Translations under genes and position numbers: made by a program
The notes under the pieces: generated by a model
The model's input: the letters and a program-made list of their open reading frames with translations, nothing else
Database searches by the model: none
Told to the model about the DNA's origin: nothing
In this document: in pieces, positions 3,349 through 37,946 of the stretch
Position numbering within the stretch: the stretch's first letter is position 1
Layout: the number at the start of each line of letters is the position of its first letter
Source of the DNA: a virus
Taxonomy: Duplodnaviria > Caudoviricetes
Strand: one strand, 5' to 3'
Length of the DNA: 64,000 nucleotides
IMG/VR virus record: IMGVR_UViG_3300005336_000003
Span: 237 to 64,236 of that record

Positions 3349-3351
3349 CCG

Positions 3352-3576: not shown

Positions 3577-4155
3577 ATGCCGTTTGGAATGAGTCGGCGG
3601 ATTGAGATCGACATGGCTCACCGTGTACCGACACACGGATCGAAATGCTGGAACGTGCATGGTCACCGCTACGTGATCATCGCAGAAGCCCAGTCGCAGG
3701 CATTACAGGAGGGCGGAGAGCAGACGGATATGGTCGTCGACTTCGGTTTCCTGAAGAACGTCATGGTGGGGCAGATCTACGACTTCTGCGACCACGGCAT
3801 GTGTCTATGGATCGACGATCCTTGGCTGGATCGATTCCTCCTGCGACACACCAGTAAGGCTCGCAAGGTCTGCGAGGAGGAAGGCTGGTACTTCGAGCCT
3901 GAAGATAAGGCTCTCGCTCAGACCAAGCTCCTGGTGGTGAATTTCATCCCAACGGCTGAGCGGCTTGCCGAGTTCTGGTTTCGCCGGATGCTGGCAGGAG
4001 TGTCACAGATATCGGGAGGCAAGGCAGCCCTCTCCCAAGTGGTTGTCCAGGAGACTCCCAACGGGATCGCCTATTACCCTCCAACGATGAAAGCCGCTCC
4101 TGGATCGATGTTCACGTCGCTTATCCGGGATAATATGGGGACAACCAATGTCTGA
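3577..4155 (+). CDS. queD: 6-carboxy-5,6,7,8-tetrahydropterin synthase
   Basis: AHR..KCWNVHGHRY, VDFG, DH, PTAE and ET motifs. Confidence 0.92.
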   Translation: MPFGMSRRIEIDMAHRVPTHGSKCWNVHGHRYVIIAEAQSQALQEGGEQTDMVVDFGFLKNVMVGQIYDFCDHGMCLWIDDPWLDRFLLRHTSKARKVCEEEGWYFEPEDKALAQTKLLVVNFIPTAERLAEFWFRRMLAGVSQISGGKAALSQVVVQETPNGIAYYPPTMKAAPGSMFTSLIRDNMGTTNV

Positions 4156-4915
4156 TGACAAGCCCAATATCGGGGGCTATCGTAAGCACCCGGTGATGGA
4201 GATGTTCGGCCCCACAATCCAAGGTGAGGGGATGCTGTGCGGCCAGGTATCGCACTTCATCAGGTTCGGAGGTTGTACCTATCGATGTACCTGGTGCGAT
4301 AGCATGCATGCAGTAGATCCGGATCAGATCAAGGCGCATGCCAAGTACCTGACGGACAACCAGATCATGCAGGCAGTCCACCAGCTCAACCCCTCTCCGT
4401 GGGTCACGCTGTCCGGAGGAGATCCTTGCATCCACGAGCTGCAGGATCTGGTGGTGAGGCTCAGGCATGATGGCTTCAAGATAGCGGTTGAGACCCAAGG
4501 AGTAATGCGCCGGAGGTGGATTCAGTACTGCCAGGCTGTAACAGTATCTCCGAAGCCTCCAAGCTCAGGCATGGCTGGCAATCTCAACAGCGCAACGCTT
4601 GACTGGTACGTGGATAATCTCGAACCTATCAGGCATCTCGGAATACCCGTCCTAAGCTTCAAGGTAGTGGTATTCGATCGCGTGGATCTTGATTGGGCTT
4701 TGCTCCTCCACCAGAGGTATCCCCGAGTCAGGTTCTTCCTCTCGATCGGGACTGACCGGCCTGAAGAGGCCGAAGGTCTGATTCTCACCACACAGGGGAT
4801 CCTGGATCGCTTCAGGACTATCTCCAGTGAGGTGTTGGCCAATCAGGAGTGGCGTAATGTAACAATCCTACCCCAGATGCATGCTTTGCTCTGGGGTCAT
4901 ACTCAAGGAGTCTGA
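4148..4915 (+). CDS. queE: 7-carboxy-7-deazaguanine synthase (radical SAM)
   Basis: FGPTIQGEG, CTYRCTWCD, SGGDP, ETQG, VSPK and LPQMH motifs. Confidence 0.95.
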   Translation: MSDDKPNIGGYRKHPVMEMFGPTIQGEGMLCGQVSHFIRFGGCTYRCTWCDSMHAVDPDQIKAHAKYLTDNQIMQAVHQLNPSPWVTLSGGDPCIHELQDLVVRLRHDGFKIAVETQGVMRRRWIQYCQAVTVSPKPPSSGMAGNLNSATLDWYVDNLEPIRHLGIPVLSFKVVVFDRVDLDWALLLHQRYPRVRFFLSIGTDRPEEAEGLILTTQGILDRFRTISSEVLANQEWRNVTILPQMHALLWGHTQGV

Positions 4916-5677: not shown

Positions 5678-6457
5678 ATGACCCAATTCGCACCTGTTGC
5701 TCCTCCCCAATTGCTACGTGCCCTGAGGGAGCAGGGCGAGCATGTGGTGGGCAGGTACCACCTCTTGCTGGCTCACGATGTAGCAGCCAAGCCCCATGAG
5801 TACAAGGAGCTGCTGCCTCCCAACAGCATGGTGATCATGGACAACAGCATCATCGAGCTGGGCTACCCTGTGACTCCGCAAGTCATGGGGACGGCTCTGA
5901 GTATCGTACCCTCCCAAGTAGTCGTACTTCCTGACGTGATCAGGAAGAAGGACGAGACTCTGGAGCTGTCCTTCAGGGGTGCCGACTTCTTCAGCAACCT
6001 GCTCAACTTCGGTACGCAGCAATTCATGGTCGTTCCTCAAGGCAACTCCCTGGAGGAACTGAAGGAATGTGCCTACGAGATGCGCTACATCGAGGGTGTA
6101 GGCTGTTGGGGAGTCGGGAGGTTCGTGACCGAGATGCTCGGCAGCCGCGCAGAGTTCGTCAAGTGGCTGTGGGAGACTCGGGAGCTGCACCTAGCAGCTC
6201 GCAAGCATGGGCCGTTCATTCACCTGCTTGGGTTCTCCGAGAATATGGAGGATGACATCGCGTGCGCCAAGCTGCCAGGCGTTCTGGGGATCGATTCGGC
6301 TGTCCCAGTACGTATGGGCCAGAACAGGCAGATGATCTCTCGGAAGCAGAAGGCACACGCACCTCGAGGCGATTGGTGGGATACCGCAGTGCCTTTCATC
6401 CATCCGGAGACGGTCGCGAATCTCAGCCTCGTGCGCAGCTGGATCCAATACGGCTAG
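5678..6457 (+). CDS. Divergent TGT/DpdA-like TIM-barrel protein (candidate preQ0 transferase)
   Basis: IMDNS..ELG, VLPDV, VVPQG, IHLLG and GIDS motifs occur in TGT-fold order; directly after folE with GGAG RBS. Confidence 0.7.
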   Translation: MTQFAPVAPPQLLRALREQGEHVVGRYHLLLAHDVAAKPHEYKELLPPNSMVIMDNSIIELGYPVTPQVMGTALSIVPSQVVVLPDVIRKKDETLELSFRGADFFSNLLNFGTQQFMVVPQGNSLEELKECAYEMRYIEGVGCWGVGRFVTEMLGSRAEFVKWLWETRELHLAARKHGPFIHLLGFSENMEDDIACAKLPGVLGIDSAVPVRMGQNRQMISRKQKAHAPRGDWWDTAVPFIHPETVANLSLVRSWIQYG

Positions 6458-6517
6458 GCACAACACACGCGACTGGATCCAATCCAAGTGCTTGCGCACT
6501 AGTTCGGAGGCCCGCTA

Positions 6518-6802
6518 ATGTCGACTCCTGATACCGAAGAAGCCATCCTAAGGGAGATAGAGTTCCTGGATGTAACATTCCCGGAATACATCGTCGCCGA
6601 GCATGGCAACTTCGTGTATCAGGACTACGACGGCTATTTTGAGATGCTGCCTGCCTGGCGAGCTGCCAGGCTAGCCGAGCTGAAGGAACAACTCGTATGG
6701 CTCAGAACCCGCCCAGTGTCTACCGAAGTACCTTCATCAGCCGATGGGCTCACAACGACCGGGTCATCATCGACGGAGACCCCTCCATCAAAGGAACCGT
6801 AA
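6518..6802 (+). CDS. Hypothetical protein
   Basis: ORF with GGAGG RBS, in operon direction. Confidence 0.5.
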   Translation: MSTPDTEEAILREIEFLDVTFPEYIVAEHGNFVYQDYDGYFEMLPAWRAARLAELKEQLVWLRTRPVSTEVPSSADGLTTTGSSSTETPPSKEP

Positions 6803-6915
6803 CAGGCTTCCGTTGGCACTCTGACGGAGCCCACGAGGTGGAGGTATCCTGGATGCACAACGGAACATCCTATGCTGTTTGGTTTGCCGATAGCCGGCTG
6901 GCGGAGGCTACCTGA
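6697..6915 (+). CDS. Small SH3-like hypothetical protein
   Basis: DRVIIDGD.SIKGTVTG..EVSWMHNG..WF..RL; AAGGA RBS; overlaps the previous ORF by 106 bp. Confidence 0.55.
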   Translation: MAQNPPSVYRSTFISRWAHNDRVIIDGDPSIKGTVTGFRWHSDGAHEVEVSWMHNGTSYAVWFADSRLAEAT

Positions 6916-7121
6916 TGATTGCAGCGATCAGGAGACTCGTCAGGACGTCTTACGGGAGCCACGAACTAGCGCGCGGCGCTTCTGACAGGGTTTCCGCGAG
7001 ATCTGAGCCTCCCGACGTTACCTGCAAGCCCGCAGGGCCGGTGATCTACACGGCTACAAGTGGGGCCGATGTGTTCCCAGCGTTCCTGAAGCGACGCGGC
7101 AGTACTAAGCAGGAGGATCCA

Positions 7122-7361
7122 ATGACCATGGTAGTGGAGTCAGCATCTTTCAAGCGTGACGGGGCTTGGCGCGAGCTGACGTTCATGTACACGAACTACA
7201 AGATGGAGACCGAGCGTCGGCATGTCCTGCCGATGCGTGTCTGGTACGGTAGCTCAGCCTACCATCAAGGTGAGCAGTGGTTCCTGAATGCTCTGGACCT
7301 GGACAAGAACGAGTACCGCAATTTTGCCATGCGTGACATGAAGGACGTAGCCACCCGATGA
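7122..7361 (+). CDS. Stand-alone WYL-domain protein
   Basis: FMYTNYK.E..RR.V.P..VWYG..YH..EQWFL.ALDLDK..YRNFAM; AGGAGG RBS before ATG 7122. An alternative in-frame ATG lies at 6915. Confidence 0.75.
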   Translation: MTMVVESASFKRDGAWRELTFMYTNYKMETERRHVLPMRVWYGSSAYHQGEQWFLNALDLDKNEYRNFAMRDMKDVATR

Positions 7362-10030
7362 AGCAATCCGGGCCGGCTCAGAAATATGAGAGCTGTCTCC
7401 TACCGTGTGAGAACTGCCCATATGGTGGTCCGAAGGTAGGATCAAGAGGAAACCCTAAGGCCAGGGTTGTTTTTGTAGGGGAAGCTCCTGGTACTCAGGA
7501 GATGGTGCACAAGACACCTCTGACGGGCCCATCAGGAGAGGTGTTCTGGAGAACCCTCCCGCTTGCAGTCCAGCTACTGGAGTGGGGTATCGACACCTCA
7601 GATGACATACTGATCCTGAACGCTTGCCAATGCTTACCGCCACGTTCAAAAGACGCCCAGAAGAATATGGCGGCAGTGACAAAAGGAGCGGCTGCATGCC
7701 AATCACGATTGCTTGGGCAGGTTATGGAGCACCCCCGAGACCTGATAGTGGCAATGGGGAACCACGCATTACGTTCACTGACTGGGAACTCTGGCTACAA
7801 GATCACCCAGATTCGGGGACAACTTTTGCCATCTTCGATGGCTCGTATCGGCTTGTTGCCTGTCTTACATCCTGCAGCGCTGTTACGTGGAACAGGGAAT
7901 TATCGGCAGTTCCGGGAGGACATCGCATACTGCTTCGACCTCCTGAACGGAATACCGCCGAAGAAGCCTGTGGTTCCTCGGTGGTTGGTTCTACGTAACG
8001 GATTCCAAGTAAGGCAGCTCGCTAAAGCGTTGAAATCTAAACCGTTTATCGCGTGCGATACGGAGACTGGGGGTTTCAATCAGCTGACCGATGAGGTCCT
8101 GGCGGTTGGGATTTGCGCGGACGCGGACCTTGTTTACATCATCCCTGAGCGGTTGGTGCCTCTCCTGAAGGCTCTATTTGAGGAAGCCGAGGGTAGGTTC
8201 ATCTGGCACAACGGCAAGTTTGATATGCGGTTCATGAAGCGGGAGCTTGGTGAGATAGCCCGCTGCGATGAAGATACCATGCTCCTGTCCTACGCTCTGG
8301 ATGAACAGGGAGGGATTCACGATCTGGAGCAGGTAGGGAACGACCTCATCGGAGCGCCCGACTACAAGCATATGCTCAAACCCTACCTGCCAAACAAGAA
8401 GACCTCTTACCGAGTTATTCCTAAGCCTATTCTATATCGTTACCTGGCTCTCGATACGAGCAATACCAGGCAGGTATTCGACATCCTCAGGGCGAGAGTT
8501 TCCGCTGATCCAAACCTGGAAAAGCTCTACACCAAAGTCCTGATGAAGGCATCTGAGTTCCTGTACAGAGTCGAGACCCAAGGTATTGCCGTATGCCCCA
8601 ACAGGGTGGAAAACCAATCCAAGAGGCTGCAGGGAGAGATCGATGATGCCTATGCAAGGCTGCAAGCTGTGGCTAAGCAGGCCGGATACGTAGGGGAGCT
8701 TAACCCGAATAGTCCCAGGCAGCTAGCTGTAGTCCTGTTTGACCTACTCAAGCTGAAGCCGAAGAGGCCAGGCAATCGCTCGACTGCTAAGGCAGTCCTA
8801 CTTGAGCTCCCTGCGCATCCAGTTATCAAAGGGTTGCAGGACTACCGGAAGGCCAAGAAGGCCAAGAGTACCTATGTAGACTCCCTAGTGCGCAACGTCA
8901 ACATTGATGGAAGAGTCCATGCCACATACCTCATTCACGGGACCCGCAGTGGGCGGCTTTCTTCTCGTGGACCAAACATGCAAAACGTACCGCGCGGGCC
9001 TGCTATCCGCAGTATGTACATGGCCTCAACTGCTCACGTATTCATTAAGGCAGACCTCAATCAGGCTGAATTGCGGTCACTTGCTGTACTCTCGGGAGAC
9101 GAGTACCTGCTGGGAGTGTATGCGCCAGGCAGTAAGAGAAAGCTTCACCATGAGACTGCTGAAGAGTTCTTCCCCGGCTGGACTGCGCGCGGCAGGGATA
9201 AGAATCCTGAAGGCCTAGAGCAGCTGATGAGGGCCAAGGCTGTGAACTTTGGGATTGTGTACGGGAGAACCGCCCCGTCGATTGCCGAGGAGTTCAAGAT
9301 CAGTGTAGGGGAAGCCCAGAAGTTCATCGACAAGTGGGCTAAGCGTAGTCCGAAGGCTTGGGAGTTTATCGGCAAATGCCGAGCTGCACCTTTGAAGGGC
9401 CAGAACTTGGTGACGGTATTCGGCCGCAAGAAGCGGCACTGGATAGTCACGCAAGAGAACCTGATGGGTCTGCAGAACGAGGCTTCCAACTTCCCGCATC
9501 AGTCCATCGCACACGATATCTGCCTACTAGGAGGAGCAAAGGCAGCTCCTATCCTGAGGCCGTTTGGAATCAATCCGGTTAATGAGGTACACGATGAGGT
9601 AATGTTCGAATGCCCAGATATCCCAGAGGTGATAGCCTGGGCTAAGCATGTGATCGTCACCTGTCTAGAGTCGATAGCCCCTGAGTGGGGTCTGACTAAG
9701 ATACCGTTCATAGCCGAAGCCGACGTTGGCCGTAGGTGGTCTATATACAGGAATCCAAGGGAGTTCAGGTATGAATACCAGCCCAGCAATCCAGAAGAGT
9801 GGTACATCCCCAATGAAGCCGTCCTTAGGGCTCTTGCCTCTAGGGATGCGCACGGAGATGTACTGGAAGGTCAGCTCGGGGTGGAGAAACCCGCGCCTAC
9901 CTGGAGTGCCTCTGAGTTGGGCTCTGACGACGATGAGGACGATTCAGACTGGACTTCCGACGACGGCTCGACTGTCTGGGGCTTTGCTCCAACTACAGAC
10001 CGAGATGATCTCTGGCCCGAAGCAACCTAA
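7358..10030 (+). CDS. Family A DNA polymerase with N-terminal family-4 uracil-DNA-glycosylase-like domain and 3'-5' exonuclease
   Basis: UDG: CENC, VFVGEAPG, CLPP, HPAA. Exonuclease: DTET, HNGKFD, YLALD. Polymerase motifs: DLNQAELR, RAKAVNFGIVYG, VHDE. Acidic C-terminal tail. Confidence 0.95.
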   Translation: MKQSGPAQKYESCLLPCENCPYGGPKVGSRGNPKARVVFVGEAPGTQEMVHKTPLTGPSGEVFWRTLPLAVQLLEWGIDTSDDILILNACQCLPPRSKDAQKNMAAVTKGAAACQSRLLGQVMEHPRDLIVAMGNHALRSLTGNSGYKITQIRGQLLPSSMARIGLLPVLHPAALLRGTGNYRQFREDIAYCFDLLNGIPPKKPVVPRWLVLRNGFQVRQLAKALKSKPFIACDTETGGFNQLTDEVLAVGICADADLVYIIPERLVPLLKALFEEAEGRFIWHNGKFDMRFMKRELGEIARCDEDTMLLSYALDEQGGIHDLEQVGNDLIGAPDYKHMLKPYLPNKKTSYRVIPKPILYRYLALDTSNTRQVFDILRARVSADPNLEKLYTKVLMKASEFLYRVETQGIAVCPNRVENQSKRLQGEIDDAYARLQAVAKQAGYVGELNPNSPRQLAVVLFDLLKLKPKRPGNRSTAKAVLLELPAHPVIKGLQDYRKAKKAKSTYVDSLVRNVNIDGRVHATYLIHGTRSGRLSSRGPNMQNVPRGPAIRSMYMASTAHVFIKADLNQAELRSLAVLSGDEYLLGVYAPGSKRKLHHETAEEFFPGWTARGRDKNPEGLEQLMRAKAVNFGIVYGRTAPSIAEEFKISVGEAQKFIDKWAKRSPKAWEFIGKCRAAPLKGQNLVTVFGRKKRHWIVTQENLMGLQNEASNFPHQSIAHDICLLGGAKAAPILRPFGINPVNEVHDEVMFECPDIPEVIAWAKHVIVTCLESIAPEWGLTKIPFIAEADVGRRWSIYRNPREFRYEYQPSNPEEWYIPNEAVLRALASRDAHGDVLEGQLGVEKPAPTWSASELGSDDDEDDSDWTSDDGSTVWGFAPTTDRDDLWPEAT

Positions 10031-10047
10031 TCTGAAAGGAATCTACG

Positions 10048-10338
10048 ATGTCAAGTGACTCTTCACTGGCAAGCCTGAAGAACATCATGCCTGTCAAGGA
10101 TCTGCCCGAGCGTAGCTGCGGCAGGTGCATATACGCCCAGGCAGTAGCCCAGATTGGCGGCCAGGTTGACTTCTCCGTCAGGGAGTGTCACGGTGACGTT
10201 CCGAAGGTCCAGTACTTCCTCATCCCGCCGAAGAAGCAAGGAGAGACGCCAGGAATCATGGAGCATTCTGGCTGGCCGAAGGTGGAATCCAAAGCTCCTG
10301 CATGTCGACACTTCAGCACCCGAAAGGACTCCGAATAA
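10048..10338 (+). CDS. Cys-rich (probable Zn-binding) hypothetical protein
   Basis: CGRC...C.G..P...WP.V....C.HF; AAGGA RBS. Confidence 0.55.
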   Translation: MSSDSSLASLKNIMPVKDLPERSCGRCIYAQAVAQIGGQVDFSVRECHGDVPKVQYFLIPPKKQGETPGIMEHSGWPKVESKAPACRHFSTRKDSE

Positions 10339-10805
10339 TGGCTCGGTATACCTCCTCCTCAATGACCGCCCTCGAGGCTCGTGAGTATCTGGCGTCCTAT
10401 ACTTTCACCCACCACATATCCGCTGCTGCTATCCGGATTGACGAGTTCTGCCGCATGAGCCATGGGCTATCAGCGGCTCCCGGCTGGTGGTCCGATCTGG
10501 ACCACTTCAAGGCCACAGGAGAGATCGTCCCTTCGAACCGCAACTGCGGTGAGCTGATCGCTCTGATCCACAGCGAGATCAGCGAGGCGCTGGAAGGCAA
10601 TCGTACTGAGGCTCCCAGTACCAAAATCCCAGGCTTCACCAACGAGGAGGAGGAGCTGGCCGACGCTCTGCATCGGATCTTCGATTATGCCGGCGCCAAG
10701 GGACTGCGTCTGGGCGAGGCCTATGAGGCAAAGGCCCGCTACAACATGACCCGGGAGGATCACAAGCTGGAGAACCGGGCAGCAAAGGGAGGGAAGCAGA
10801 TATGA
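10338..10805 (+). CDS. MazG-like all-alpha NTP pyrophosphohydrolase
   Basis: LIHSEISEALEG..EEEELADALHRIFDY..KARYN; TAATG coupling to the upstream gene. Confidence 0.8.
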   Translation: MARYTSSSMTALEAREYLASYTFTHHISAAAIRIDEFCRMSHGLSAAPGWWSDLDHFKATGEIVPSNRNCGELIALIHSEISEALEGNRTEAPSTKIPGFTNEEEELADALHRIFDYAGAKGLRLGEAYEAKARYNMTREDHKLENRAAKGGKQI

Positions 10806-26495: not shown

Positions 26496-26993
26496 CTACA
26501 CCTCCAACGATTTGGCTATTGCAGCACGGCAGACTCTTTCGAACTCTGCTCGCTTGTTCACCATGGCATTGCGGATGTAATGCTTTGGGGTGATGGTTGC
26601 TCCCGGCCAGCTGACCGAGGTGAAGAAGGCGTAGCCGCCAGCATGAGCTCCCGAGCCTCCCCAAACGAAGGCTAGTGCTCTCGCCTTGGCTGCAGATATG
26701 ATCCGAGCAGCGATTGTTCCGCCACGCTCCTGGATGGCTGCGTAAGGGACCCCCTCCGAGAATAGGACAACGGATACGGCATTCGATGTCGCTACAACCC
26801 GGCCTTGGATTGAGGCACCCAACTTTCCGGATCTGCTGCCTGCAAGCCTTGCCGCTAGGTCACGGGTATCCGCAGCAACAAACACCAGGTCCGTTTTGAG
26901 GAACTGCAGAAGCCTTGGCGGAGCTCCCTTGAGCTTGGCAACAAGGGCTTCCTGACCTTTGAAGGTGAAGCTAACGTCGATGCTGCCGCTCAT
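26496..26993 (-). CDS. HK97 gp10-like neck/tail completion protein
   Basis: RSGKL..SI, YA.IQE.GG and V..PG....YIR motifs. Confidence 0.75.
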   Translation of the reverse strand: MSGSIDVSFTFKGQEALVAKLKGAPPRLLQFLKTDLVFVAADTRDLAARLAGSRSGKLGASIQGRVVATSNAVSVVLFSEGVPYAAIQERGGTIAARIISAAKARALAFVWGGSGAHAGGYAFFTSVSWPGATITPKHYIRNAMVNKRAEFERVCRAAIAKSLEV

Positions 26994-27826
26994 AGCGGGA
27001 TCACCGACTTGTAGGGCTGCAAGACCCGAACAGCATACCTCGGGATGTCCGAAGGAACGTAGGATGCAGTTTCCTGGCCTGCAAGTGATCGGGATGCCTG
27101 GCTCGGGCGAGACCTACGAGCGAGTGCGTCACTCACCATATCCCAGACCACCCCTTCGACAGTGTAGGGACAGTAGCTGTAGGACAGGTTGACGGATGCG
27201 GCATCGTCAGCTGCGTTGAAGATGTACCCTCCAAGAACGGCCGGATTCAGAGCATACTGGCCAACAGCCGGAGCTGTAGCAACCTTTACCAAGGCTGCTC
27301 CCGTACTGACGTAGGTGACTCCTGCATCAGCTAGCCATACGCCGTAGGGCATGCTGGCAGCTGCCAGCCCCGAGGCAACAACCTGGACATCAGCCAGCTC
27401 GAGGTAGCCAGCGGTGTACTGGAACAGACAATTCTGCCTGCCCCTGCAGTAGGTGTAGCCGATAAGCTCGATTGCCTGAGGCTCACCAGGAGGGATACCA
27501 TCGTAGGTTTCGATCCGCCAGCCGATGGAGTTGGCGTTCGTAGAGCCGTCAGGCGAGACGATATTGGCAGGCTGGATGGTACGATTGTCTACCACCACGG
27601 CAATAACACTGTTGACCGGCCAGCGCTCCGTGAACTGGAAGGAGCTGTTCTGCCCGTCGAAGTACTCGCGGTATTCCTGGTTGAGGAAGGACCCTCTCTC
27701 GAGGTATCCCATGACGTCTGCACTGATCCGGGTGATAGCCCGAGCAATGACAGTGTCGCTGGTGCTACCTGAGATCGATAGCCAGTCCTTAACTCGGGCA
27801 ACCGTGGTCAGGTCAAGCGATGCCAT
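26990..27826 (-). CDS. Head-tail adaptor (connector) with inserted beta domain
   Basis: DLTT...VK.WL, E..DG, YTAGY, C-terminal S.SLAG.ET.SY...IP.....L.PY motifs. Confidence 0.75.
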   Translation of the reverse strand: MASLDLTTVARVKDWLSISGSTSDTVIARAITRISADVMGYLERGSFLNQEYREYFDGQNSSFQFTERWPVNSVIAVVVDNRTIQPANIVSPDGSTNANSIGWRIETYDGIPPGEPQAIELIGYTYCRGRQNCLFQYTAGYLELADVQVVASGLAAASMPYGVWLADAGVTYVSTGAALVKVATAPAVGQYALNPAVLGGYIFNAADDAASVNLSYSYCPYTVEGVVWDMVSDALARRSRPSQASRSLAGQETASYVPSDIPRYAVRVLQPYKSVIPL

Positions 27827-29571: not shown

Positions 29572-31374
29572 TCAGTCGAAATGAGCCACTGGGTTTGCCA
29601 AGGACATCTTGATCAGTTCGCGCGCCCGCTGCTCGGGAGTCATCACCTCGAGACGCTTCCGATAGGCATCAACCACGTCCTGATCGTCCTGTGACAGTTG
29701 ACCTGTCCCAGCAAATCCTGCGTCCATCGCCTTGGTGATGACGCGCAGGACTCCCTTTGGAGGCTCTGGCTGCGCGGCGATCTTCTCGATCCTCGCAGTC
29801 ATGGCCTCAACAATCTTGTGCAGCTTCTCGTACCGGAATTCCAGCCCGTTGGACTTCGCAAGCAGCGAAGCTACTGCCGGAGGCAGGTTCGGGTTGTCGA
29901 GAAACAGATCCGCTTCCTGCAGACCCTTGAAGTTCTTGCCGAACTTCTGGGTCATCTCGTCCGCGGCAGCGCTTGCAGTCTTCAACATGCCAGCCAGCTT
30001 GGTGAAGACTTCGACCTTGTCGCCTTCGGTGGGGAGGATATCCAGTAGGCCCTTCCTCAGGCCTTCCGGCATCGTGTTCACCGCGTTGGCGATGATGATG
30101 ATGGTGTCCTCTTCCTCCAGCTGCACGTCCGTGTTGGACATGATCTCCTGGACTTCCTCGGTCACCAAGGTGAGGAGGAACTCACAGAGGGCGTCGGTAG
30201 CCTTCTGCACTGCGCTGGGCAATGCTGAGGTGCCGTCGCCTTCGAGGGACTCTTCCACCAGGATGTCCGTGCGGATCCACTTGAGCTCGCTGATGATGCA
30301 GGCAATCCGGCCCACATCGTAGAGCCCCTTCTTCAGGCCCTCCTTCGTGGAGAGGTCGAATGCCTTCTTCGGCTGCTCGGTGTTCTTCTCGAGCGGCTTC
30401 GTCACCTTGGGATCGCCCGCCTTGATGGGCTCGTCTTCGGGCTTCGTGCCGCCAAGGAGCTGGTCAAGCTTGGTGAGAGCCGCTTCCGTAGGGCCAGCAA
30501 CAGCTTCCACGGCTGCAGCAGTCGCCGCAGTGCTCATATGCTTGACTGCCTCGGCCTTCTTGCTGAAGGTCTGGCCGTCCGGAGTCTTCCAAACCTGCTC
30601 CAACTCCGATGCCAGAGTCTTCAGGACCTGCTCGTCGGGGAGAGCCTCGAGGCCTCGCTCGATCCGGGCCTCATTGAGGGTCTTGACACCCTTCTTGACT
30701 CCCTCATCCTCAGCAGCTTCGGTTGCCAACTGCTCGGGAGTCTTCGTCGCCTCGGTGCTGGTAGCCTCCTTGGTCTCCTCCTCGGTCTTGGTCTCGGAAG
30801 CTGCAGACTTGATGACCGTATTGGGAGGAGCGCTCAGCGGCGGTGGGGGCTCCTCCGGCTCGCCAACGCTGGTGAATGCGCGGGCTTCCGGAGCGGCGCC
30901 TTCCGCCTTGAAGAACTCGAAGGTGGCTCCCTTCACGCAGGGGAGATCCACGAGGGAGACCTCGGTGGGGATCGCCTCATAGCGGATCAGGCTCGGATTC
31001 TCCGGATCGGCCCACCGCTTGCCGTAGCGGCCTCCGACGCTGAATCCGGTGTAGACGCCCTCTTCCACCTTCCGCCACTCGTCGTCATCGACAATACGGG
31101 CGCACCCGTACATCTTCTTGACGTCGTCCTGGAAGTCGATCGGCTGAGCGAACAGCCCGGCCGCGATGTTCTTGTGCATAGCGCGGATATTGCCGTAGTT
31201 CTTGCCGCCGCTCGCGCCGTACATGTCGTTGGACCATTTCTCGAAGTTGGGCTTCGAGGAGGCGTAGTCCATGATTTCACCGGAGCGATCTCCTGCCTCC
31301 TCGGTGAAAACGCCGTACACCAGACGCTGTGCCGCGTCTACCTTGGTGATTGGCAGGAAGATCCTCAGACTCAT
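29572..31374 (-). CDS. Prohead protease with long scaffold-like C-terminal region
   Basis: KVD..QRLVYG..D..GE, RAMH, GFSVGG and EVSLVD.P HK97-protease motifs; acidic helical tail. Confidence 0.88.
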   Translation of the reverse strand: MSLRIFLPITKVDAAQRLVYGVFTEEAGDRSGEIMDYASSKPNFEKWSNDMYGASGGKNYGNIRAMHKNIAAGLFAQPIDFQDDVKKMYGCARIVDDDEWRKVEEGVYTGFSVGGRYGKRWADPENPSLIRYEAIPTEVSLVDLPCVKGATFEFFKAEGAAPEARAFTSVGEPEEPPPPLSAPPNTVIKSAASETKTEEETKEATSTEATKTPEQLATEAAEDEGVKKGVKTLNEARIERGLEALPDEQVLKTLASELEQVWKTPDGQTFSKKAEAVKHMSTAATAAAVEAVAGPTEAALTKLDQLLGGTKPEDEPIKAGDPKVTKPLEKNTEQPKKAFDLSTKEGLKKGLYDVGRIACIISELKWIRTDILVEESLEGDGTSALPSAVQKATDALCEFLLTLVTEEVQEIMSNTDVQLEEEDTIIIIANAVNTMPEGLRKGLLDILPTEGDKVEVFTKLAGMLKTASAAADEMTQKFGKNFKGLQEADLFLDNPNLPPAVASLLAKSNGLEFRYEKLHKIVEAMTARIEKIAAQPEPPKGVLRVITKAMDAGFAGTGQLSQDDQDVVDAYRKRLEVMTPEQRARELIKMSLANPVAHFD

Positions 31375-31420: not shown

Positions 31421-32578
31421 TCAAGTCTGCATTATCCTGCTGAGTTGGGGCAGAAGTAGGTTCGGTAGACGTCCAGGAAACAGAGCGAAGCGGCGGATGT
31501 AGCCGCCTAACTGAGCATTGCCGTTCAGATTGCTGAGACCCAGCGACCCCAAGGTCAGGAACCCTGTGGTGGCTACAAGCGCCGCAGTAGCTGACACGCT
31601 CGTCGCCTGGCCGTTGACCGACATGGCGATACTCTTGGAATCGGTAGCAACGACAATCCGATTGAGGACATTCAGGCCATTGCTGTTCTGGGTCAGTGTC
31701 GCCAAAGCTGCGCCGACGGCGCTGTTGGATGTGGCAGTGACCTGAGTCGAGGAGGTGGAGGATATCAGCAGACCGGAGTTGGCGGTTCCTACGGTGCTGG
31801 GGCCGGCGCAGGCAATGTAATTGCCGCCTTGCAGCGAGGTCACATCGGCCACCAGTAAGGCCGGGATTATGTAATCGATCAGCAGAGTGAAATCTGGGCG
31901 CTTAGCGCCAACCGAGCCGACCGTAGCCAAATTGCATTGCAGCGACTGGCCAGCGATGGTGTCGTTGAACGCGCCGACCGTCATGCCCATCGCTTGCGAG
32001 CGATTCTGATCGCATTGCACGAACGACGGCGAGCCTGCCACCGTGAACGTGCAGGAGGCCGGAGCTCCTGCGATTGTGAATACCAGGGGCGAACCATCCG
32101 TTGCCACTCCTGATGCGCCGCCGGACAGTGTAACCGAGCCTGAGCCGACCATCCACAGAGTATGGGTGCCAACCGGCAGCGTGTTCGTCTGCGTCACGTA
32201 GCCGGCGGAATTGTCGAAGCCCAGAGTCGTCGAAGGAAACAGGCCAATTCCCAGAGCTTTGGTACCTGTGACATCATAGGCTGGCGATCGGGTCTTTGCG
32301 ATGGCGCCAGATGACGGCGAAACGACCACAGCGCCCGGCGTGACGCCCGAGAAAGTTGCCGGCAATCCTGCTGACGCTGATGCGGTGATGACGAAGCGAC
32401 CAGGTGCCCCGACCATGCCATCGGTAAAGTCGGCAGAGATCAGGGGCCGCTGAAGACTGCCGAGGAGTGCATCCTTCAAGGTTGGATAGGCAGCAATCGC
32501 CTCATCCGCATGCATCTGGGCTGCTGCGGCAAGCGCAGCTGCACCAAATAGCAGGCCTCGGCGAGGCAGACAGATCAT
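31421..32578 (-). CDS. Head spike/fiber-like protein with Tat-like N-terminus
   Basis: N-terminus PRRGLLFGAAALAAAA; P.YD.TG...G and C-terminal GYIRR...P.RL lectin-like pattern; ATGA overlap. Confidence 0.6.
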   Translation of the reverse strand: MICLPRRGLLFGAAALAAAAQMHADEAIAAYPTLKDALLGSLQRPLISADFTDGMVGAPGRFVITASASAGLPATFSGVTPGAVVVSPSSGAIAKTRSPAYDVTGTKALGIGLFPSTTLGFDNSAGYVTQTNTLPVGTHTLWMVGSGSVTLSGGASGVATDGSPLVFTIAGAPASCTFTVAGSPSFVQCDQNRSQAMGMTVGAFNDTIAGQSLQCNLATVGSVGAKRPDFTLLIDYIIPALLVADVTSLQGGNYIACAGPSTVGTANSGLLISSTSSTQVTATSNSAVGAALATLTQNSNGLNVLNRIVVATDSKSIAMSVNGQATSVSATAALVATTGFLTLGSLGLSNLNGNAQLGGYIRRFALFPGRLPNLLLPQLSRIMQT

Positions 32579-33372
32579 TGCAGGAAACCCATCGTGATGA
32601 ACGGCTTGGTCGTGGTATCGGCCGACGTCAATGTGGCTGCTGCATCCAATACCAGGGCCGCATACAGCGTGGTACCTGAGGCAAGAGGGATAGGAGTCTG
32701 CAGCTGGGAAGCCTGGCAGATTGCGGGCGTACCTACGGCAATGCATGCTCCGATAGGAATGTAGCCGATCAGCTTGCCCAGATCAGCCACAGCCTGCGTG
32801 ATCGCCGTCTTATCGGTTACGGTTGAGCCGCTTGGGTTGGCGTTCCACATCACCAGGTGCATCGGCGGTAGGATACCGCTGGCAAAGGTGACCGAAAGGT
32901 TTTGCAGGATGGATTTCTGCGCCGGTGCGGTAAACTGCAGCAGCCCGCCGATGGTGTTGCCTGACGAGTAGGCAGCTGCCTGTACCGATGCTGGCTGGAT
33001 CTGAACTCCCGTGATGGCGCTGTTGACCGTCACTGAGACTGGGAGGTTGCTCTGATCACTGGCCAGAACCACCGGAATGGAAGCGGCCATCGCAGCCTGG
33101 CCCAAGGATACCGCAGCCGCCCCTACCTTTCCAAGGTTGATCGAGATGGGGTGGGTCGGAGACGCATCGTTGCCTGCCCCGTCCCCGACCGATACCCGTA
33201 GCTGCCTCAGGGAAGTGATCGAGGGCTGATCAGTTCCCGTTGGGGTGGGGAGAGTACCGGGAGCCGCCTCCATTGGGTAGGCAGGCAACTCCCACCCGTA
33301 TGCAGGCAAGCTTAGCCCGGAGCAGACGATAGCCCCTCCGAGTAACAGACCTGCCCGCATACCTTTACTCAT
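32575..33372 (-). CDS. Putative head decoration protein with Sec-like signal peptide
   Basis: MSKGMRAGLLLGGAIVCSGLSLPAYG; LGQ..MAAS.PVVLASDQS motif; beta-rich C-terminus. Confidence 0.55.
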   Translation of the reverse strand: MSKGMRAGLLLGGAIVCSGLSLPAYGWELPAYPMEAAPGTLPTPTGTDQPSITSLRQLRVSVGDGAGNDASPTHPISINLGKVGAAAVSLGQAAMAASIPVVLASDQSNLPVSVTVNSAITGVQIQPASVQAAAYSSGNTIGGLLQFTAPAQKSILQNLSVTFASGILPPMHLVMWNANPSGSTVTDKTAITQAVADLGKLIGYIPIGACIAVGTPAICQASQLQTPIPLASGTTLYAALVLDAAATLTSADTTTKPFITMGFLQ

Positions 33373-33421
33373 TTGTTCCCCCACCGTCAAAGCTGCTCAG
33401 CCGTGAATCAGGCTGCTCTGA

Positions 33422-33958
33422 TCACCAGTAGACGTCGCCGTAGACGTAGATGTCGGCCGTTGCCGGCGCGCCTTGTCCCGTGGTCAGGGAGAAGAACAGC
33501 GAGGAGCCGCTGTACTGGGTCTTGCCGGGCGTCGTTGCGATGGTGAGATCCAGCACCAGACCTGAGGTTGTCAGGGCCGTATAGGCCTGAGCCGCCGCCA
33601 CGATGGCGTCACCTCCCTTGGAGGCTGCCGAATACAGGCCGCCGGCTGCAGTGGTCAGCGAGACCGAGGCATTCAGCACCGAGACTTTCGTCACCCGGAA
33701 GCTCTGCCCCACAGGAACGTCCATCGCGATCGCCTGATCGGTGGTGACGTTCATGTTCGCGCCGATGAGGCGTCCGAGCCACTGCTGTGTTGACAGTACG
33801 CATCCCGAGTTCAGCAGGTCGACCACATCGCCGTTTGCGACGGCTGTGGTGATCTTGCCGGTGCTGTCGGACTGATAGACGTTGCCGCTCCGCGTCTCGA
33901 AGGACTGGTTGGCTACGGGAGCGATCATGTAGACGCGGTTCAGAAGGGCGAGGGACAT
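33422..33958 (-). CDS. Putative head decoration/structural protein
   Basis: AAGGAG RBS; ANMN.TTDQAI...A.ADIYVYG jelly-roll-like pattern. Confidence 0.6.
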   Translation of the reverse strand: MSLALLNRVYMIAPVANQSFETRSGNVYQSDSTGKITTAVANGDVVDLLNSGCVLSTQQWLGRLIGANMNVTTDQAIAMDVPVGQSFRVTKVSVLNASVSLTTAAGGLYSAASKGGDAIVAAAQAYTALTTSGLVLDLTIATTPGKTQYSGSSLFFSLTTGQGAPATADIYVYGDVYW

Positions 33959-33980
33959 ACGGAACTCCTTGGTTGTAGCG

Positions 33981-35843
33981 TTACGTCTTCGGCTGGGCCT
34001 TCAGAAACAGCTTGCACCAGTAGTCAGGATTGATCTCCCCTTCCACTAGTAGGCACTCTCCGCTCCTGTAGTTGTGGCAGATACCACAATGCTCTGCGAG
34101 CCCTCCAGGGCTGTAGTCTACGCTGCTCTTCGGGTGCTTGGGGGAAGCGACAGCCGCGCCACTGACGTCTGAGACTCCACCAGTGCCGCTTTCAACGCCA
34201 CCAGTCGCAGCCTTACCAAACGCATTCGGAGTAACGCCCCCATCATCTCCTGTCTCTGTTCCGGCGACAGCGTTCGCTCCTGGGCTTCCGGTAGAGGCCA
34301 GTGCGGCAGCAGCCCCAGGCCCCGTGAGTGCACCGAGCGGAACATATCCTGAAGTGGTTGCCAGCATGGGCTGCTCAGCGACTCCTCCTGCTGGGAGCCT
34401 TCCACGATCGCGCCGGACCTCGTCGATTGAGAACACTCCTGCCTTGACGTATCCAATGTCAATCTCCATCTGGGCTTTGGGGTCCTGCTCCCGGTCATCC
34501 AGGAAGACGAACTCCAGACCGGGCTCCTTGAGCTCGAACCTGATGATGAGGTCCATCAGGAACTTCCACCACCTTTGGAGAGGCAGAAGTCCTTCCTCTA
34601 GGGCCCTCGAGCGCGCCGTACCAGCAGTTGCCCGGTTCAGATGCTCGATGAAGGGCTCAGGGGATACTGAGAAGGCAAAGCAGACGATACGGGCTAGCCA
34701 CTCGTCGTACGAGTCCTTCAGGGGCGGAGCTTTTGTCTCCTGGTACTTGAATTCCCCAGGCATGAAGCGCGTCTTGCGGCGGTTTGCAAGGTTGCCTTCC
34801 ATCAGGCCATCGAACCAGGACTGGAAATCCTTGACGTTCTGTAGCGTCCAGGTCGTAGGCAGGCCGACGAATGCATCCGGGTTGCTGCCCGAGAGGTAAT
34901 ACTCTAGCTGGAAGATCGAGCGGCGGATCGCCGTATTGACGGTCACGACGATCTGCTCAACGGGGCTAAGCCCGTAGACACGGTTCGTCGTGCGATTGCG
35001 GGGCAGGTAGATCAGCTCCGACGCCGTGTAATCCGCCGCCGGGATACCATGCAGGATCTGCTGGTAAGCAGGATCTGCAGGTCCAGAAGGCCTACGACCA
35101 GAAGCATCCAGAAGGGGAAAGATGGTAGCACCATCCATGAGCTCCAGAGCATACAGGTCTCCACCGCGAGTCCTCCGCTTCCACAGGGTAGGCGCATCGA
35201 GGACAAACATGTCCTCGTTCAGCTGCCTCATCCACTGATCCCAGTTGTTCTCCTTGTCTGGGAACGAGAAGAAGTCCGTCACGTTGCGAATCCGCTGCCG
35301 GACGTCGGCAGGCAGCTTCAGCGTGTTGAGCTGGGATCTCGGGATCGCGGCCGGCCGAATAGCCGAGCTAGCATTGCCCATTCCAGCGCCGCCAGGACCT
35401 CCTGAAGGCCCTCCGGCAAGCTTCCCTGCAAAGATCGGCTGATCGGGATTGTCGAGAGTCCCGTCGTCAAGGTTGACCCCTTCGGTAGGCCGGATAGCCC
35501 AGTCGAGCGCAGCCAGCTGATCTTTCCGGGCCTCGATCACCCCTCTCAGGATGTCGCAGTTCAGGCTCAGGGATCGCAGATCGGCAAAGGAGATGGGAGA
35601 GTCTGCGCGGGGCGTATAGTTGAGGTTGCGCCCTGTCGGGTAATCATAGCGCCGGCCTTTGACTCCTGCCTCTTCGCTCTGATCCGCAAAGGGTGCAAGG
35701 GGCTGCAGCGGCCCAAACCACGTTGCAGGCGTAATCCCTGCGATGGCATAGCGGATAGCCTGCTGGCTCCTCATGACGAATGAGGGGATCACCGGCGATA
35801 CGGTACCGACAGCTCCGCGAGGGCCGACTGGCAAAGAAGGCAT
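33981..35843 (-). CDS. Portal protein with C-terminal HiPIP-like domain
   Basis: DG.TI, AYQQILHG.P, YGLSPVEQI, DEWLARIVCFAF, IDEVR..RG..P; C-terminal CxxC-x7-C-x12-C. Confidence 0.92.
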   Translation of the reverse strand: MPSLPVGPRGAVGTVSPVIPSFVMRSQQAIRYAIAGITPATWFGPLQPLAPFADQSEEAGVKGRRYDYPTGRNLNYTPRADSPISFADLRSLSLNCDILRGVIEARKDQLAALDWAIRPTEGVNLDDGTLDNPDQPIFAGKLAGGPSGGPGGAGMGNASSAIRPAAIPRSQLNTLKLPADVRQRIRNVTDFFSFPDKENNWDQWMRQLNEDMFVLDAPTLWKRRTRGGDLYALELMDGATIFPLLDASGRRPSGPADPAYQQILHGIPAADYTASELIYLPRNRTTNRVYGLSPVEQIVVTVNTAIRRSIFQLEYYLSGSNPDAFVGLPTTWTLQNVKDFQSWFDGLMEGNLANRRKTRFMPGEFKYQETKAPPLKDSYDEWLARIVCFAFSVSPEPFIEHLNRATAGTARSRALEEGLLPLQRWWKFLMDLIIRFELKEPGLEFVFLDDREQDPKAQMEIDIGYVKAGVFSIDEVRRDRGRLPAGGVAEQPMLATTSGYVPLGALTGPGAAAALASTGSPGANAVAGTETGDDGGVTPNAFGKAATGGVESGTGGVSDVSGAAVASPKHPKSSVDYSPGGLAEHCGICHNYRSGECLLVEGEINPDYWCKLFLKAQPKT

Positions 35844-35844: not shown

Positions 35845-36057
35845 TTATCCCCTACCCATCTTCACGACTAGCCCGCCTCGAGGATCTGCAATGATCTCCT
35901 CATAGGCTTCGCTGAAGGCCTCGACCTCTTTCAAGGTCATATTCCGTCCGGAGATCAGAGACTCCCGGATTGCATGCCAGGCAATGATACCTACAGTGTT
36001 GCCCGCAAGGGCGGCATCCACCGTCTTTGCAACCTGCTCGCCATTCACGGTTATCAT
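35845..36057 (-). CDS. Hypothetical protein
   Basis: Fills the terL-portal gap with an ATGA overlap. Confidence 0.55.
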   Translation of the reverse strand: MITVNGEQVAKTVDAALAGNTVGIIAWHAIRESLISGRNMTLKEVEAFSEAYEEIIADPRGGLVVKMGRG

Positions 36058-37946
36058 TGCTTGGGGCCCCCAGATGCTCTGTTCAGAATCTCCTGTGCTT
36101 TCCGAGCCTCCTCGCGATAGTACGCAAGGAATCCCGCACCGTCGATCATGGGCTGTGCGAAGGCGTTGATTATCGCGTCCCCTTTGTCTGGGCTACGCCG
36201 AATACGCTCTTTGACCTTCTTCTTGTCCTCGACCGCGATGCCCGTGCTCTTGAGTGTCCAGCGTGTTGCTGCCAGATCTGCTGCGGCTTCGGCGTCAGGA
36301 GGTAACGCAATCTCCAGGCCAAGCTGCGGATCAAGAGCTTCTCGGAAGGTCCAGAACCACTCACTACGAGCATTGGCGAACCCCAATACGCCCGATCTGT
36401 CCGTTGCAACCGACGAATTCGCGCCGTTCATGGCTACGACTTCGATCCCGCGTAGCCTTCCCACGTCGACAGGCGAGGATCCGACACCAACCACGTCGAT
36501 CTTGCACCGCAGGTGCTGCAGTTTCAGCTCAACCAGCTTGTCGATCACAGCCGTTCCATCAGGAGTCTGCACTCCTGGAACGCACTGAAGAGCAGCAAAC
36601 CAAGCGCCGATGCGCTCGGAATACACGGTCTTATCGCGCCCACCGCGCGAAACATCCACGCCAACCTCATGGGAATGGGGGATTTCGTGAGACAATCCCT
36701 GGATGATGCTGAGGTTATCAGCGTTGAGCTTGCGCTGGTCAGGCGTCAACAGGGAGCTGGTATCCACTCCGGCAAAGGGGATTCCCTTGATCCCCAGCCA
36801 TAGCGGGGAGCCAGACTCATGACGCGAAGCGTTGGAAAGGGTTCCGCTGGTTTCCCCGCCTGCTCTATCCGTCACTCCGGCAGCCTTCATGGCCGCTTCT
36901 TCCTTGCGACGGTCGGCAAGCTTCTGTAGATACTCTGCGTATGTCGGTGCCCAGCGAGCCTGAGCTAGCAGGATCCAGGCTGTCGGGATCACCTGCCACT
37001 CATTATCCTCCTCGCCCACGCCAAAATCGCCCTGAAGCATGCGCGAACGCAGCGGCTCCGGCAGAGATTGCAGGACACTGAGGTACCCGGACTGCATCAG
37101 GTACGCATTATCCTGCACCCTTGCGCGGATAAAGGTCCTGCTGCGGGGCTGGACTGCGGATTCCAGGCCGTTGATCTTCATGTAAACGGGCTCGGGCCCG
37201 CTTACTTCACGGTCATTTCCTTCCTCATCCGTGATGAACCAACGCAATTCGCCAGGTTTTGCTGGATTTGCGTGGTGAGGATCCAGCCAAGGAGCCCAAT
37301 AGTCGATTACCCAGGTACCTTCTGGCGTGGTTGGCGGGTTTCCTGCACAGATGACCCGGGTCTTGTAGAACTGGCCCGTCTTAGGATCGATCTTGGTGGT
37401 GCGGTTCCAGCCCTTCAGGAACATGAACTGGCTGCGGGAAAAGTGCGTGATCTCGTCAAAGGCCTTCAGATCGTGCGGACGGCCCTGATACTTCTGCTCA
37501 TCCCCCTCGTACTGGCACGCGCCGAACTCGATCCGGCGGCCATCTTCAATCCGCCAGAGCATGTCTGCGCCATTGTACTTGCCCAGATCCCCGTAGATCT
37601 CCTGGCTCCGATCGCGGATACCCTTGAGCTGCTGGAACTCCCGGCGGAAAATGATGCTCCGCCAGTGACTATCCAAAGCAGTACCCAGCAGGAGGTCGGT
37701 TTTCCCGCCTCCAGCAGCGCCACCATAAAACAGCTCGTCCGCTTCGCAGTAGTAGGCTTCAGTCTGCGGCCCAGGGAGTGGACTCCATACTGGAATGTCC
37801 ACTCCCGATAGGATGCTATCCAGCTCGGCGAGCTCTTGCTCGGTCAAGTAGGGTAGCAATGCGTCGAGTTCTGTCGTCAGGGGCGAGAGCTCCGCTCCTT
37901 GTGGAGTCTGGAGCATTGGGTTGGGCACCTCCTGTGTTGGCGGCAT
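36054..37946 (-). CDS. terL: Terminase large subunit
   Basis: P.PGPQ, YGGAAGGGKT, FDEITHF, NPP, GVDVSRGG.D and RSPDKGDA motifs. Confidence 0.95.
   Translation of the reverse strand: MPPTQEVPNPMLQTPQGAELSPLTTELDALLPYLTEQELAELDSILSGVDIPVWSPLPGPQTEAYYCEADELFYGGAAGGGKTDLLLGTALDSHWRSIIFRREFQQLKGIRDRSQEIYGDLGKYNGADMLWRIEDGRRIEFGACQYEGDEQKYQGRPHDLKAFDEITHFSRSQFMFLKGWNRTTKIDPKTGQFYKTRVICAGNPPTTPEGTWVIDYWAPWLDPHHANPAKPGELRWFITDEEGNDREVSGPEPVYMKINGLESAVQPRSRTFIRARVQDNAYLMQSGYLSVLQSLPEPLRSRMLQGDFGVGEEDNEWQVIPTAWILLAQARWAPTYAEYLQKLADRRKEEAAMKAAGVTDRAGGETSGTLSNASRHESGSPLWLGIKGIPFAGVDTSSLLTPDQRKLNADNLSIIQGLSHEIPHSHEVGVDVSRGGRDKTVYSERIGAWFAALQCVPGVQTPDGTAVIDKLVELKLQHLRCKIDVVGVGSSPVDVGRLRGIEVVAMNGANSSVATDRSGVLGFANARSEWFWTFREALDPQLGLEIALPPDAEAAADLAATRWTLKSTGIAVEDKKKVKERIRRSPDKGDAIINAFAQPMIDGAGFLAYYREEARKAQEILNRASGGPKQ

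Follow-up and report, generated by a model that had tools for sequence, protein, structure and literature searches.

A portal protein with a C-terminal extension

The 64,000-nt window analysed here, positions 237 to 64,236 of the IMG/VR virus record IMGVR_UViG_3300005336_000003 (Duplodnaviria; Caudoviricetes), covers nearly the whole of the 64,236-bp record, which has direct terminal repeats and is rated the complete genome of a soil phage. At 33981..35843 it encodes a portal protein of 620 aa followed by a TAA stop (all features of the window described below lie on the minus strand). The tail of this protein appears, from sequence and modelling, to be a module of the HiPIP (high-potential iron-sulfur protein) type that has no export signal and was recruited into phage head proteins, here the portal. 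When the open reading frame (ORF) was translated and compared with Pfam and PHROG, Phage_portal PF04860 matched residues 184-478, the portal core (34410..35294), with 47.5 bits, above the gathering cut-off of 39.1 that marks membership of the HK97-type portals, and phrog_2662 ('portal protein') matched with E = 2e-64. By these family matches the ORF is assigned to the HK97-type portals, as had been claimed in an earlier interpretation made from the letters of the DNA alone (the sequence-only reading); it has 1038 relatives at E<=1e-3 (8000 candidates scored).

Among the matches listed, resemblance to the closest portals extends to about residue 535. A Gly/Ala/Thr-rich stretch, by its sequence a flexible linker, occupies about residues 486-568 (34140..34388); its first part is common to the close portal relatives, which end soon after ...TGD.GG. 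Here the protein closes, after the linker, with KHPKSSVDYSPGGLAEHCGICHNYRSGECLLVEGEINPDYWCKLFLKAQPKT, and the C-terminal end of the 620-aa product reads ...SPKHPKSSVDYSPGGLAEHCGICHNYRSGECLLVEGEINPDYWCKLFLKAQPKT before the stop. The sequence-only reading had placed the tail at 33981-34139, and both limits hold exactly: K569 begins with base 34139, and the TAA stop reaches down to 33981. The peptide that it quoted is correct, with the last 7 residues left off.

The tail is related to high-potential iron-sulfur proteins

The HiPIP-like domain itself spans residues 569-614 (34002..34139), which align with residues 6-51 of PioC; the family profile, AlphaFold2 and Foldseek also speak for a HiPIP-like domain. 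Searched with phmmer against 177,635 PDB sequences, the 59-aa tail alone found PioC (6xyv) at E = 2.4e-5 with the four Cys in register. An exhaustive search of 1.84 billion representatives gave 284 relatives of the tail at E<=1e-3, the best at 7.6e-14. We aligned the tail with 120 relatives (alignment A1, 121 sequences, in the numbering of the 59-residue piece). Invariant in A1 are Y16, C25, C28, C36, G41 and C49, which correspond to portal Y577, C586, C589, C597, G602 and C610, and K11, G19, V39, I43, W48 and F52 are kept in at least 90%. Every one of the ten PDB sequences that the A1 profile matched at E<=1 is a HiPIP: PioC at 4.7e-11, 3h31 at 1.6e-5, 1hlq at 3.1e-5, 1isu at 3.7e-3 and the rest more weakly.

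The four predicted ligands are Cys586 (34086..34088), Cys589 (34077..34079), Cys597 (34053..34055) and Cys610 (34014..34016), each invariant (121/121 for Cys586) and aligned with the corresponding Cys, 1 to 4, of PioC. Tyr577 (34113..34115), ahead of Cys1, is aligned to the Tyr of the HiPIPs 6xyv, 3h31, 1hlq and 1isu. Trp609 (34017..34019) at Cys4-1 and, following it, Phe613 at Cys4+3, both at least 90% conserved, make up the putative aromatic shield. The tail motif, C586-x2-C589-x7-C597-x12-C610 plus Y577, W609 and F613, thus has the ligand order of HiPIPs, C-x2-C-x(n)-C-x(12-13)-C, and their aromatic shield (Tyr before Cys1, Trp at Cys4-1, aromatic at Cys4+2/+3), and the pattern that the sequence-only reading had picked out is there with its four Cys, Tyr, Trp and the aromatic at Cys4+3. 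Such a motif lies far beyond chance. The commonest Cys spacings among 150 listed relatives are x2/x8/x12 (57 matches), which is that of PioC, and x2/x7/x12 (44 matches), which is that of the portal tail. Curated models see the family more dimly: NCBIfam NF041615 Iro (iron-oxidase HiPIP) matches the tail at 3e-5 with 24.3 bits (equivalog cut-off 100), Pfam HIPIP PF01355 reaches 13 of the 121 A1 members at E<=0.01, and one A1 member weakly matches PF18524 'HPIP_like' (0.0054).

With A1 as alignment, AlphaFold2 gave a tail model with a predicted local distance difference test (pLDDT) score of 89 and a predicted TM-score (pTM) of 0.67; a single-sequence model was poor (pLDDT 65) and was discarded. 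In a Foldseek search of the PDB with the A1-based model, places 1-15 were taken by HiPIPs (query TM-score, TMq, 0.47-0.68), with 1isu at TMq 0.68 and a root-mean-square deviation of 1.8. The HiPIP fold proposed earlier is therefore borne out on a predicted model, as distinct from a solved structure, by these 15 fold matches and by the PioC matches of the tail and its profile. We conclude that the tail domain is a HiPIP homologue in which every ligand and shield residue is intact and which is predicted to bind a cluster; as far as sequence and fold reach, the HiPIP-like interpretation is supported. HiPIPs are periplasmic electron carriers of phototrophs and iron oxidisers. The domain described here carries no twin-arginine translocation (Tat) signal and is no soluble periplasmic carrier, being the C-terminus of a 620-aa portal.

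The fusion is intact in the genome

The reading frame is unbroken from linker to domain and ends in a clean TAA, followed by an AAGGAG in position to serve the next gene. The linker offers no ATG, GTG or TTG in frame, and a search for a nested internal start that would yield a free 60-aa protein found none; the domain is therefore produced only as part of the portal. We looked for a foreign base composition in the tail and found none: guanine-plus-cytosine (GC) content is 0.576 in the tail and 0.602 in the core, and GC at third codon positions (GC3) is 0.73 and 0.68, which puts the tail inside the range of the gene. The identical protein is recorded for 5 contigs. Logan contigs from three rhizosphere-metagenome runs, which cover 33700-34700 (in the third run, a stretch spanning tail and linker), show 0 differences and 0 indels; a run labelled X4 covers only 34369-34565, in the portal core and outside the tail. 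Since the three runs are possibly the source samples of the record, their agreement excludes a one-off assembly slip and is not independent biology. We regard the observed HiPIP-like portal tail as confirmed.

Genomic setting of the portal gene

The portal gene lies in a packaging/head module. Directly upstream is the large terminase subunit (36054..37946; phrog_979 3.7e-38, phrog_2 2e-19). Downstream on the same strand come three unassigned genes and then the protease/scaffold, capsid-like and adaptor genes. The protease/scaffold gene, at 29572..31374, encodes a head-maturation protease or scaffold-like protein (phrog_21715 5.7e-23, phrog_9427 'head maturation protease' 4.2e-6). Its 600-aa product has an N-terminal protease-like region (the phrog_9427 match) and a long Ala/Glu/Lys/Thr-rich region, and probably represents a fusion of protease and scaffold; there is also a weak match between it and the C-terminal part of the phrog_2662 portal family. 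The gene at 27926..29521 matches phrog_13692 (7e-95), which names no function, and is the probable major capsid protein by its position between the protease/scaffold and head-tail adaptor genes, the latter at 26990-27826 (phrog_442). As for the unassigned genes, a 178-aa gene downstream of the portal had no PHROG and no PDB match, and a neighbouring 385-aa product had no PDB match. Two of the unassigned genes between portal and protease, 31421-32746 and 32575-33390, have export-type leaders: one is twin-arginine-like, ...PRRGLLFGAAALAAAAQMHA, behind an internal Met, and the second is Sec-like, MRAGLLLGGAIVCSGLSLPAYG. Neither gene was matched by PHROG and the first had no PDB match. Secreted proteins inside a head module are unusual.

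A family of small phage proteins related to the tail

The family to which the tail belongs comprises at least 284 clusters and consists mostly of proteins of 50-80 aa without signal peptide. Among the best 150 of the 284 relatives, to which our figures on lengths and leaders refer, 124 have at most 100 residues, 132 at most 130, and 18 are longer. The short members begin a few residues ahead of the domain (median offset of the first Cys, 22) and therefore have no signal peptide. A Tat-type leader, SRRGFIEKS, is seen in one of the 150 listed matches only, P0252, which links the family to ordinary exported HiPIPs. The stand-alone members are basic, with a median net charge of +4 and 91 of the 112 proteins of at most 80 aa net positive, whereas the portal tail has a net charge of 0. 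The nearest relatives of the tail are themselves stand-alone phage proteins, 55-57% identical, which suggests that the HiPIP-like module was taken from a stand-alone phage gene. The phage's own genome holds a single copy of the domain. The stand-alone relatives closest to the tail (P0121, P0122, P0124, P0128, P0145, P0146; L020, L021, L028 and L035) have in common an extra C-terminal motif behind the domain, G[LV]R.TI..A, with the look of a short amphipathic helix, that is absent from the portal tail.

In longer proteins the domain has varied partners. It is fused to a DUF2213 or XkdF head-maturation protease in P0127, P0129, P0134 and P0239, and stands with NUDIX in P0188 and P0239, with ADP-ribosyltransferase in P0151, P0184 and P0188, with LPD23 and 'DNA transfer protein' regions in P0160, with histidine phosphatase in P0244 and with phrog_6216 in P0155 and P0236; six long members had no match in either library scanned. 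Two proteins have two HiPIP-like domains in tandem, P0127 (335 aa), where they sit after the DUF2213 head-protease domain, and P0166 (239 aa).

Fold searches pointed to the same kinds of protein. BFVD matches are embedded in phage proteins whose names are prohead protease, XkdF, SppA, zeta-toxin, ParB, HAD and helicase, and the best small viral match is the 67-aa A0A879R316 of Synechococcus phage S-SRM01 (E 4.7e-5, TMq 0.76). The ESM Atlas gave leads only (scores <0.9), namely clusters of 50-62 aa that are 89-100% viral in the three with recorded taxa and, in one cluster, carry PF01355 in 36% of the members. Searches of GenBank phages by tblastn gave a single match at E 0.05 with the tail, such short queries being weak against 2.3 Gb, none at E<=1e-3 with P0123 or P0147, and none convincing at E<=5 with P0183, so that this collection yielded no cultured phage bearing a family member. 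Two motif scans (GxI[DN]PxYWC[KR] and HCGICEH[YF]) of 185,579 species genomes found no relative, which suggests that the subfamilies defined by these motifs are rare in cellular genomes and prophages.

Family genes lie among head and packaging genes

To map the surroundings of the family we used 61 IMG/VR loci, 15 found by the motif I[DN]PxYWC[KR] and 46 by HCGICxH[YF]. In the 15-locus set neighbours were identified by PHROG scans. In the 46-locus set the domain was masked and ORFs of at least 120 aa were searched with phmmer (E<=1e-6, at most three rounds) against terminases, portals and proteases that PHROG had labelled, a small reference set that makes this labelling a lower bound. Head or packaging genes contain or neighbour the domain in at least 44 of the 61 loci.

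In 10 of the 15 loci the domain lies within, or no more than 2.5 kb from, a portal, connector, terminase or head protease; among the remainder, three loci were assigned by near-duplicate layout and two are open. L001 encodes a 795-aa portal (1963-4350, plus strand; phrog_1216 2.5e-114) in which the domain is inserted between residues 175 and 260, and its near-duplicate L002 (5419-7803, plus strand) has the same layout. The L001 portal matches the solved portal 7sxk at 3e-71, with residues 15-174 and 261-769 aligned to chain residues 12-170 and 179-681, and the insert of about 86 residues therefore takes the place of about 8. Together with the portal tail, L001 and L002 show that the domain was fused to portals twice independently, in unrelated portal families. 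Elsewhere in this set, L005 and L008 combine NUDIX, the domain and a head-maturation protease; L010 has a 60-aa gene directly upstream of the portal (phrog_156, 1e-136); L009 has a 66-aa gene two genes past a connector-type protein (phrog_332); and in L006, L007, L012, L013 and L015 the large terminase is 0.9-2.5 kb away. L011 and L014 are near-duplicates of L010 and L007 with the same layout, and the PHROG scans recognised no head gene in L003 or L004. L003 encodes a 1579-aa protein (5956-10695, plus strand) that opens with the domain, has an endolysin-like region towards its end and is a neighbour of a phrog_5880 protein; P0271 is an 823-aa, Ala/Gly-rich phrog_5880 protein, not a portal, with the domain at its C-terminus. 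Both resemble large virion proteins of no known type that stay internal or are ejected.

In the larger set a terminase or portal lies no more than 4.1 kb from the domain in 24 of the 46 loci. The domain forms the C-terminus of a DUF2213-type head protease in 7 (confirmed by PHROG for L053 and L058), and a NUDIX protein carries it in 1; the fusions to portal and to prohead protease are independent. In several loci the small gene comes immediately ahead of the terminase (L021, L028, L035, L062; in the first three, the large terminase) or lies between the terminase and a large downstream gene (L039, L043).

Additions to the portal C-terminus

Other portals of the family also end in additional domains: the 120 listed relatives include 18 with PF04233 (MuF), 4 with PF12106, 1 with PF18431, which its source calls a CdiA-CT RNase A domain, and 1 with PF01832. 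As such additions are common, the portal C-terminus seems to be a permissive place, or hot spot, for extra domains. Among proteins of 341-1085 aa, a search for matches to the tail region found the query alone, and among longer proteins the A1 profile found only the query and P0271; in both searches other candidates may crowd out relatives, so that they are weak evidence that portal fusions are rare. When portal residues 1-520 (53-row alignment) and the tail (121-row alignment) were modelled as a complex, the interaction prediction scores from aligned errors (ipSAE) were 0.00 and 0.00; the model, made without controls, speaks neither for nor against docking.

Comparison with known systems

PioC of Rhodopseudomonas palustris TIE-1 is, in the accessible text of its nuclear magnetic resonance paper, the smallest known HiPIP, with ligands Cys22/25/34/47; the same text describes a Trp at Cys4-1 and an aromatic residue at Cys4+2/+3 as well conserved among HiPIPs and as presumed to make the cluster more stable and its potential higher (PMC7462912). 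PioC (54 residues; 6xyv, 7a4l, 7a58) is the tail's best solved match and has the same minimal size; both have four aligned Cys spaced x2 / x7-8 / x12, a Trp before the last Cys and an aromatic residue three after it. PioC differs in being a free periplasmic carrier between PioA and the reaction centre, at +450 mV, whereas the portal tail, which lacks a signal, forms the C-terminal end of a structural protein of the virion, and no redox partner of it is known. In the HiPIP family at large (PF01355; NF041615 Iro) fold and ligand pattern are as in the tail, but the phage proteins are signal-less, mostly basic and encoded by head-module genes, and the tail falls below both curated cut-offs.

The original paper on the cluster of lambda gpL is said to be Tam et al. 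2013. The part of another paper available to us describes four Cys around a cluster density in cryo-electron microscopy (cryo-EM) of gpL and calls its function uncharacterised (PMC10721106). In gpL and its relatives, then, a phage virion protein has a known [4Fe-4S] cluster such as is predicted here, but gpL is on the tail tip's outer surface and its cluster is described as oxygen-sensitive, whereas the present domain would be in the head, on the portal, and has a HiPIP fold in its model. That the folds are unrelated is our assumption, gpL being known here by description and not by sequence comparison. MuF-toxin fusions and polyvalent proteins likewise place variable extra domains on proteins that assemble at or near the portal; their payloads are enzymes or toxins proposed, in the parts of two papers available to us, for delivery to cells (PMC3482391, PMC5576092), whereas the HiPIP fold is a cofactor carrier. 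A0A879R316 is a stand-alone protein, not fused to a portal, automatically named 'High potential iron-sulfur proteins family profile domain-containing protein' in UniProt, so databases already flag a HiPIP-like domain in phages. Searches that left subscription journals and supplements outside, where a prior description is possible, brought up no paper about HiPIP-like proteins of phages or an iron-sulfur domain in a portal; a 2026 review of iron-sulfur cofactors in cellular and viral systems cites gpL and contains neither 'HiPIP' nor 'portal'.

Proposed role of the module

We propose, with a probability of roughly 0.6, that the module is a cofactor-folded internal module of the phage head, probably with a [4Fe-4S] cluster, which is free in most phages and fused to a larger protein in some. 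The approximately 50 residues of the tail would most likely fold around one such cluster through Cys586, Cys589, Cys597 and Cys610, with Tyr577, Trp609 and Phe613 as its shield. The module may have been captured from the small signal-less phage proteins encoded in packaging/head modules and would be tethered to the portal C-terminus by a flexible linker of about 80 residues. Portals are dodecamers whose C-terminal crown lies within the head. Twelve copies would thus stand in the capsid lumen, around the crown and beside the packaged DNA.

According to the accessible part of the PioC study, HiPIPs acquire their cluster in the cytoplasm (PMC7462912). A signal-less copy could therefore be loaded where phage heads assemble, and we suggest that the cluster goes in while the protein is in the host cytoplasm, ahead of procapsid assembly or in the course of it. 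Lacking a Tat signal, the module could not serve as the usual periplasmic electron carrier. The HiPIP fold buries its cluster, and may for that reason suit a particle that survives outside the cell, where the cluster would persist in the mature virion. The fusion partners would be proteins that co-assemble at the start of head formation (portal, prohead protease) or are themselves packaged.

Several observations weigh against this reading. Tail and motif are found in none of the 119 other portals among the matches listed. The closest portal relatives among those matches (62-68% identical) end in or soon after the common linker, and the closest IMG/VR relative, L017 (64% identical), ends ...GGTHQV without a tail, its next gene beginning 17 nt on; the tail is therefore dispensable for portal function. 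The Pfam HIPIP search that the sequence-only reading had called for failed for this protein, which PF01355 did not match at E<=10, and the 24 bits of NCBIfam Iro are far under the cut-off of 100, so that neither curated HiPIP model (PF01355, NF041615) matches the tail significantly. Foldseek E values against the PDB are weak (best 0.027, none <=0.001), as may be expected of a 55-residue domain. The capsid-interior location comes from general portal architecture and not from a model of this protein. Under the limited labelling, 14 of the 46 loci and 2 of the 15 have no head gene, and with many loci being near-duplicates the independent lineages number well below 61. Finally, we know of no family member with known metal content, spectrum or potential.

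Alternative explanations

The absence of the tail from the other 119 listed portals would be accounted for if the fusion were an artefact, a mis-assembly or lost stop codon in one contig of a phage that really has a separate small gene. Continuous frame, clean TAA followed by AAGGAG, lack of an internal start codon, a tail composition that agrees with the gene, an identical protein on 5 contigs, the error-free Logan runs (possible source samples) and the insertion of the same domain in an unrelated portal together make this extremely improbable. A different possibility is that the tail is cargo: a variable C-terminal payload, cleaved off by the prohead protease, stored in the head, ejected with the DNA and acting on a host target. 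This would fit the MuF, PF12106, PF18431 and PF01832 additions to the 120 listed portal relatives, the company, in long phage proteins, of ADP-ribosyltransferase, NUDIX, LPD23 and 'DNA transfer protein' regions, and the zeta-toxin, ParB and helicase proteins in which the domain is also found; MuF fusions have been proposed, in the parts of two papers available to us, as packaged in heads and delivered (PMC3482391, PMC5576092). But uncleaved portals remain with the capsid, and no cleavage site is known here; no enzymatic family matched the tail in the Pfam, NCBIfam and PHROG scans. We know of no toxic or enzymatic activity of the HiPIP fold, and an electron carrier ejected in a few copies would scarcely alter host metabolism. 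No immunity-like partner was noticed next to the stand-alone proteins, though no systematic look was made. On balance we consider the cargo explanation unlikely, while granting it some weight.

Four-Cys motifs of small phage proteins often bind zinc, and the four Cys might hold Zn, or nothing redox-active, in a structural knot or adaptor that drifted from HiPIPs and lost the cluster. That Pfam HIPIP misses the portal sequence and 108 of the 121 family members at E<=0.01, and that one member weakly hits PF18524 'HPIP_like' (0.0054), would agree with such drift. An aromatic shield, however, is needless at a zinc site, and it is at least 90% kept over 121 sequences; the accessible text of the PioC paper ties this shield to cluster stabilisation (PMC7462912). 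The spacing from Cys3 to Cys4 is fixed at 12, as in PioC, and among solved structures the fold model resembles HiPIPs and not zinc ribbons. Loss of the cluster thus seems distinctly unlikely. It may also be that the module does hold its cluster and that the one-electron couple is put to use, for instance to buffer or sense oxidants on behalf of the packaged genome or of assembly. Residues believed to give the high potential are conserved, and the basic charge of the stand-alone members (median +4; 91/112 positive) would be in keeping with DNA contact. There is, though, no known partner, substrate or phenotype, and the portal tail is uncharged overall; moreover, the lambda gpL cluster has been known since 2013 with its role still given as uncharacterised in the part of the paper available to us (PMC10721106), so a cluster need not imply a redox role. 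We hold a redox function to be very unlikely. Little more can be said for a wider version, that redox-active HiPIP modules are widespread in phage heads, free or on portal, prohead protease or injected proteins, and lie against the genome as electron donors or redox sensors; we think it improbable. If true, the portal crown of this phage would be encircled by twelve clusters (48 iron atoms), and condensed DNA might be shielded from oxidative damage outside the cell, or the redox or iron state of the host reported at assembly or ejection.

Implications

A cofactor-folded head module remains the reading that we favour. No function has been assigned to the family, which counts at least 284 clusters, and our searches, as far as they go, turned up no literature on it; expression and spectroscopy offer a simple entry point, and for biochemists the family would supply a very small, naturally modular HiPIP. 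For phages, the domain appears as a recurrent building block of head-assembly proteins, met in the portal, the prohead protease, multi-domain packaged proteins and small genes beside the terminase. If the cluster is present, an iron-sulfur cofactor would lie within the capsid, in contrast to lambda gpL, the known virion case, which is at the tail tip. The cluster would then also add iron to the phage particle, which bears on the 'Ferrojan Horse' hypothesis, reportedly about iron in phage tails.

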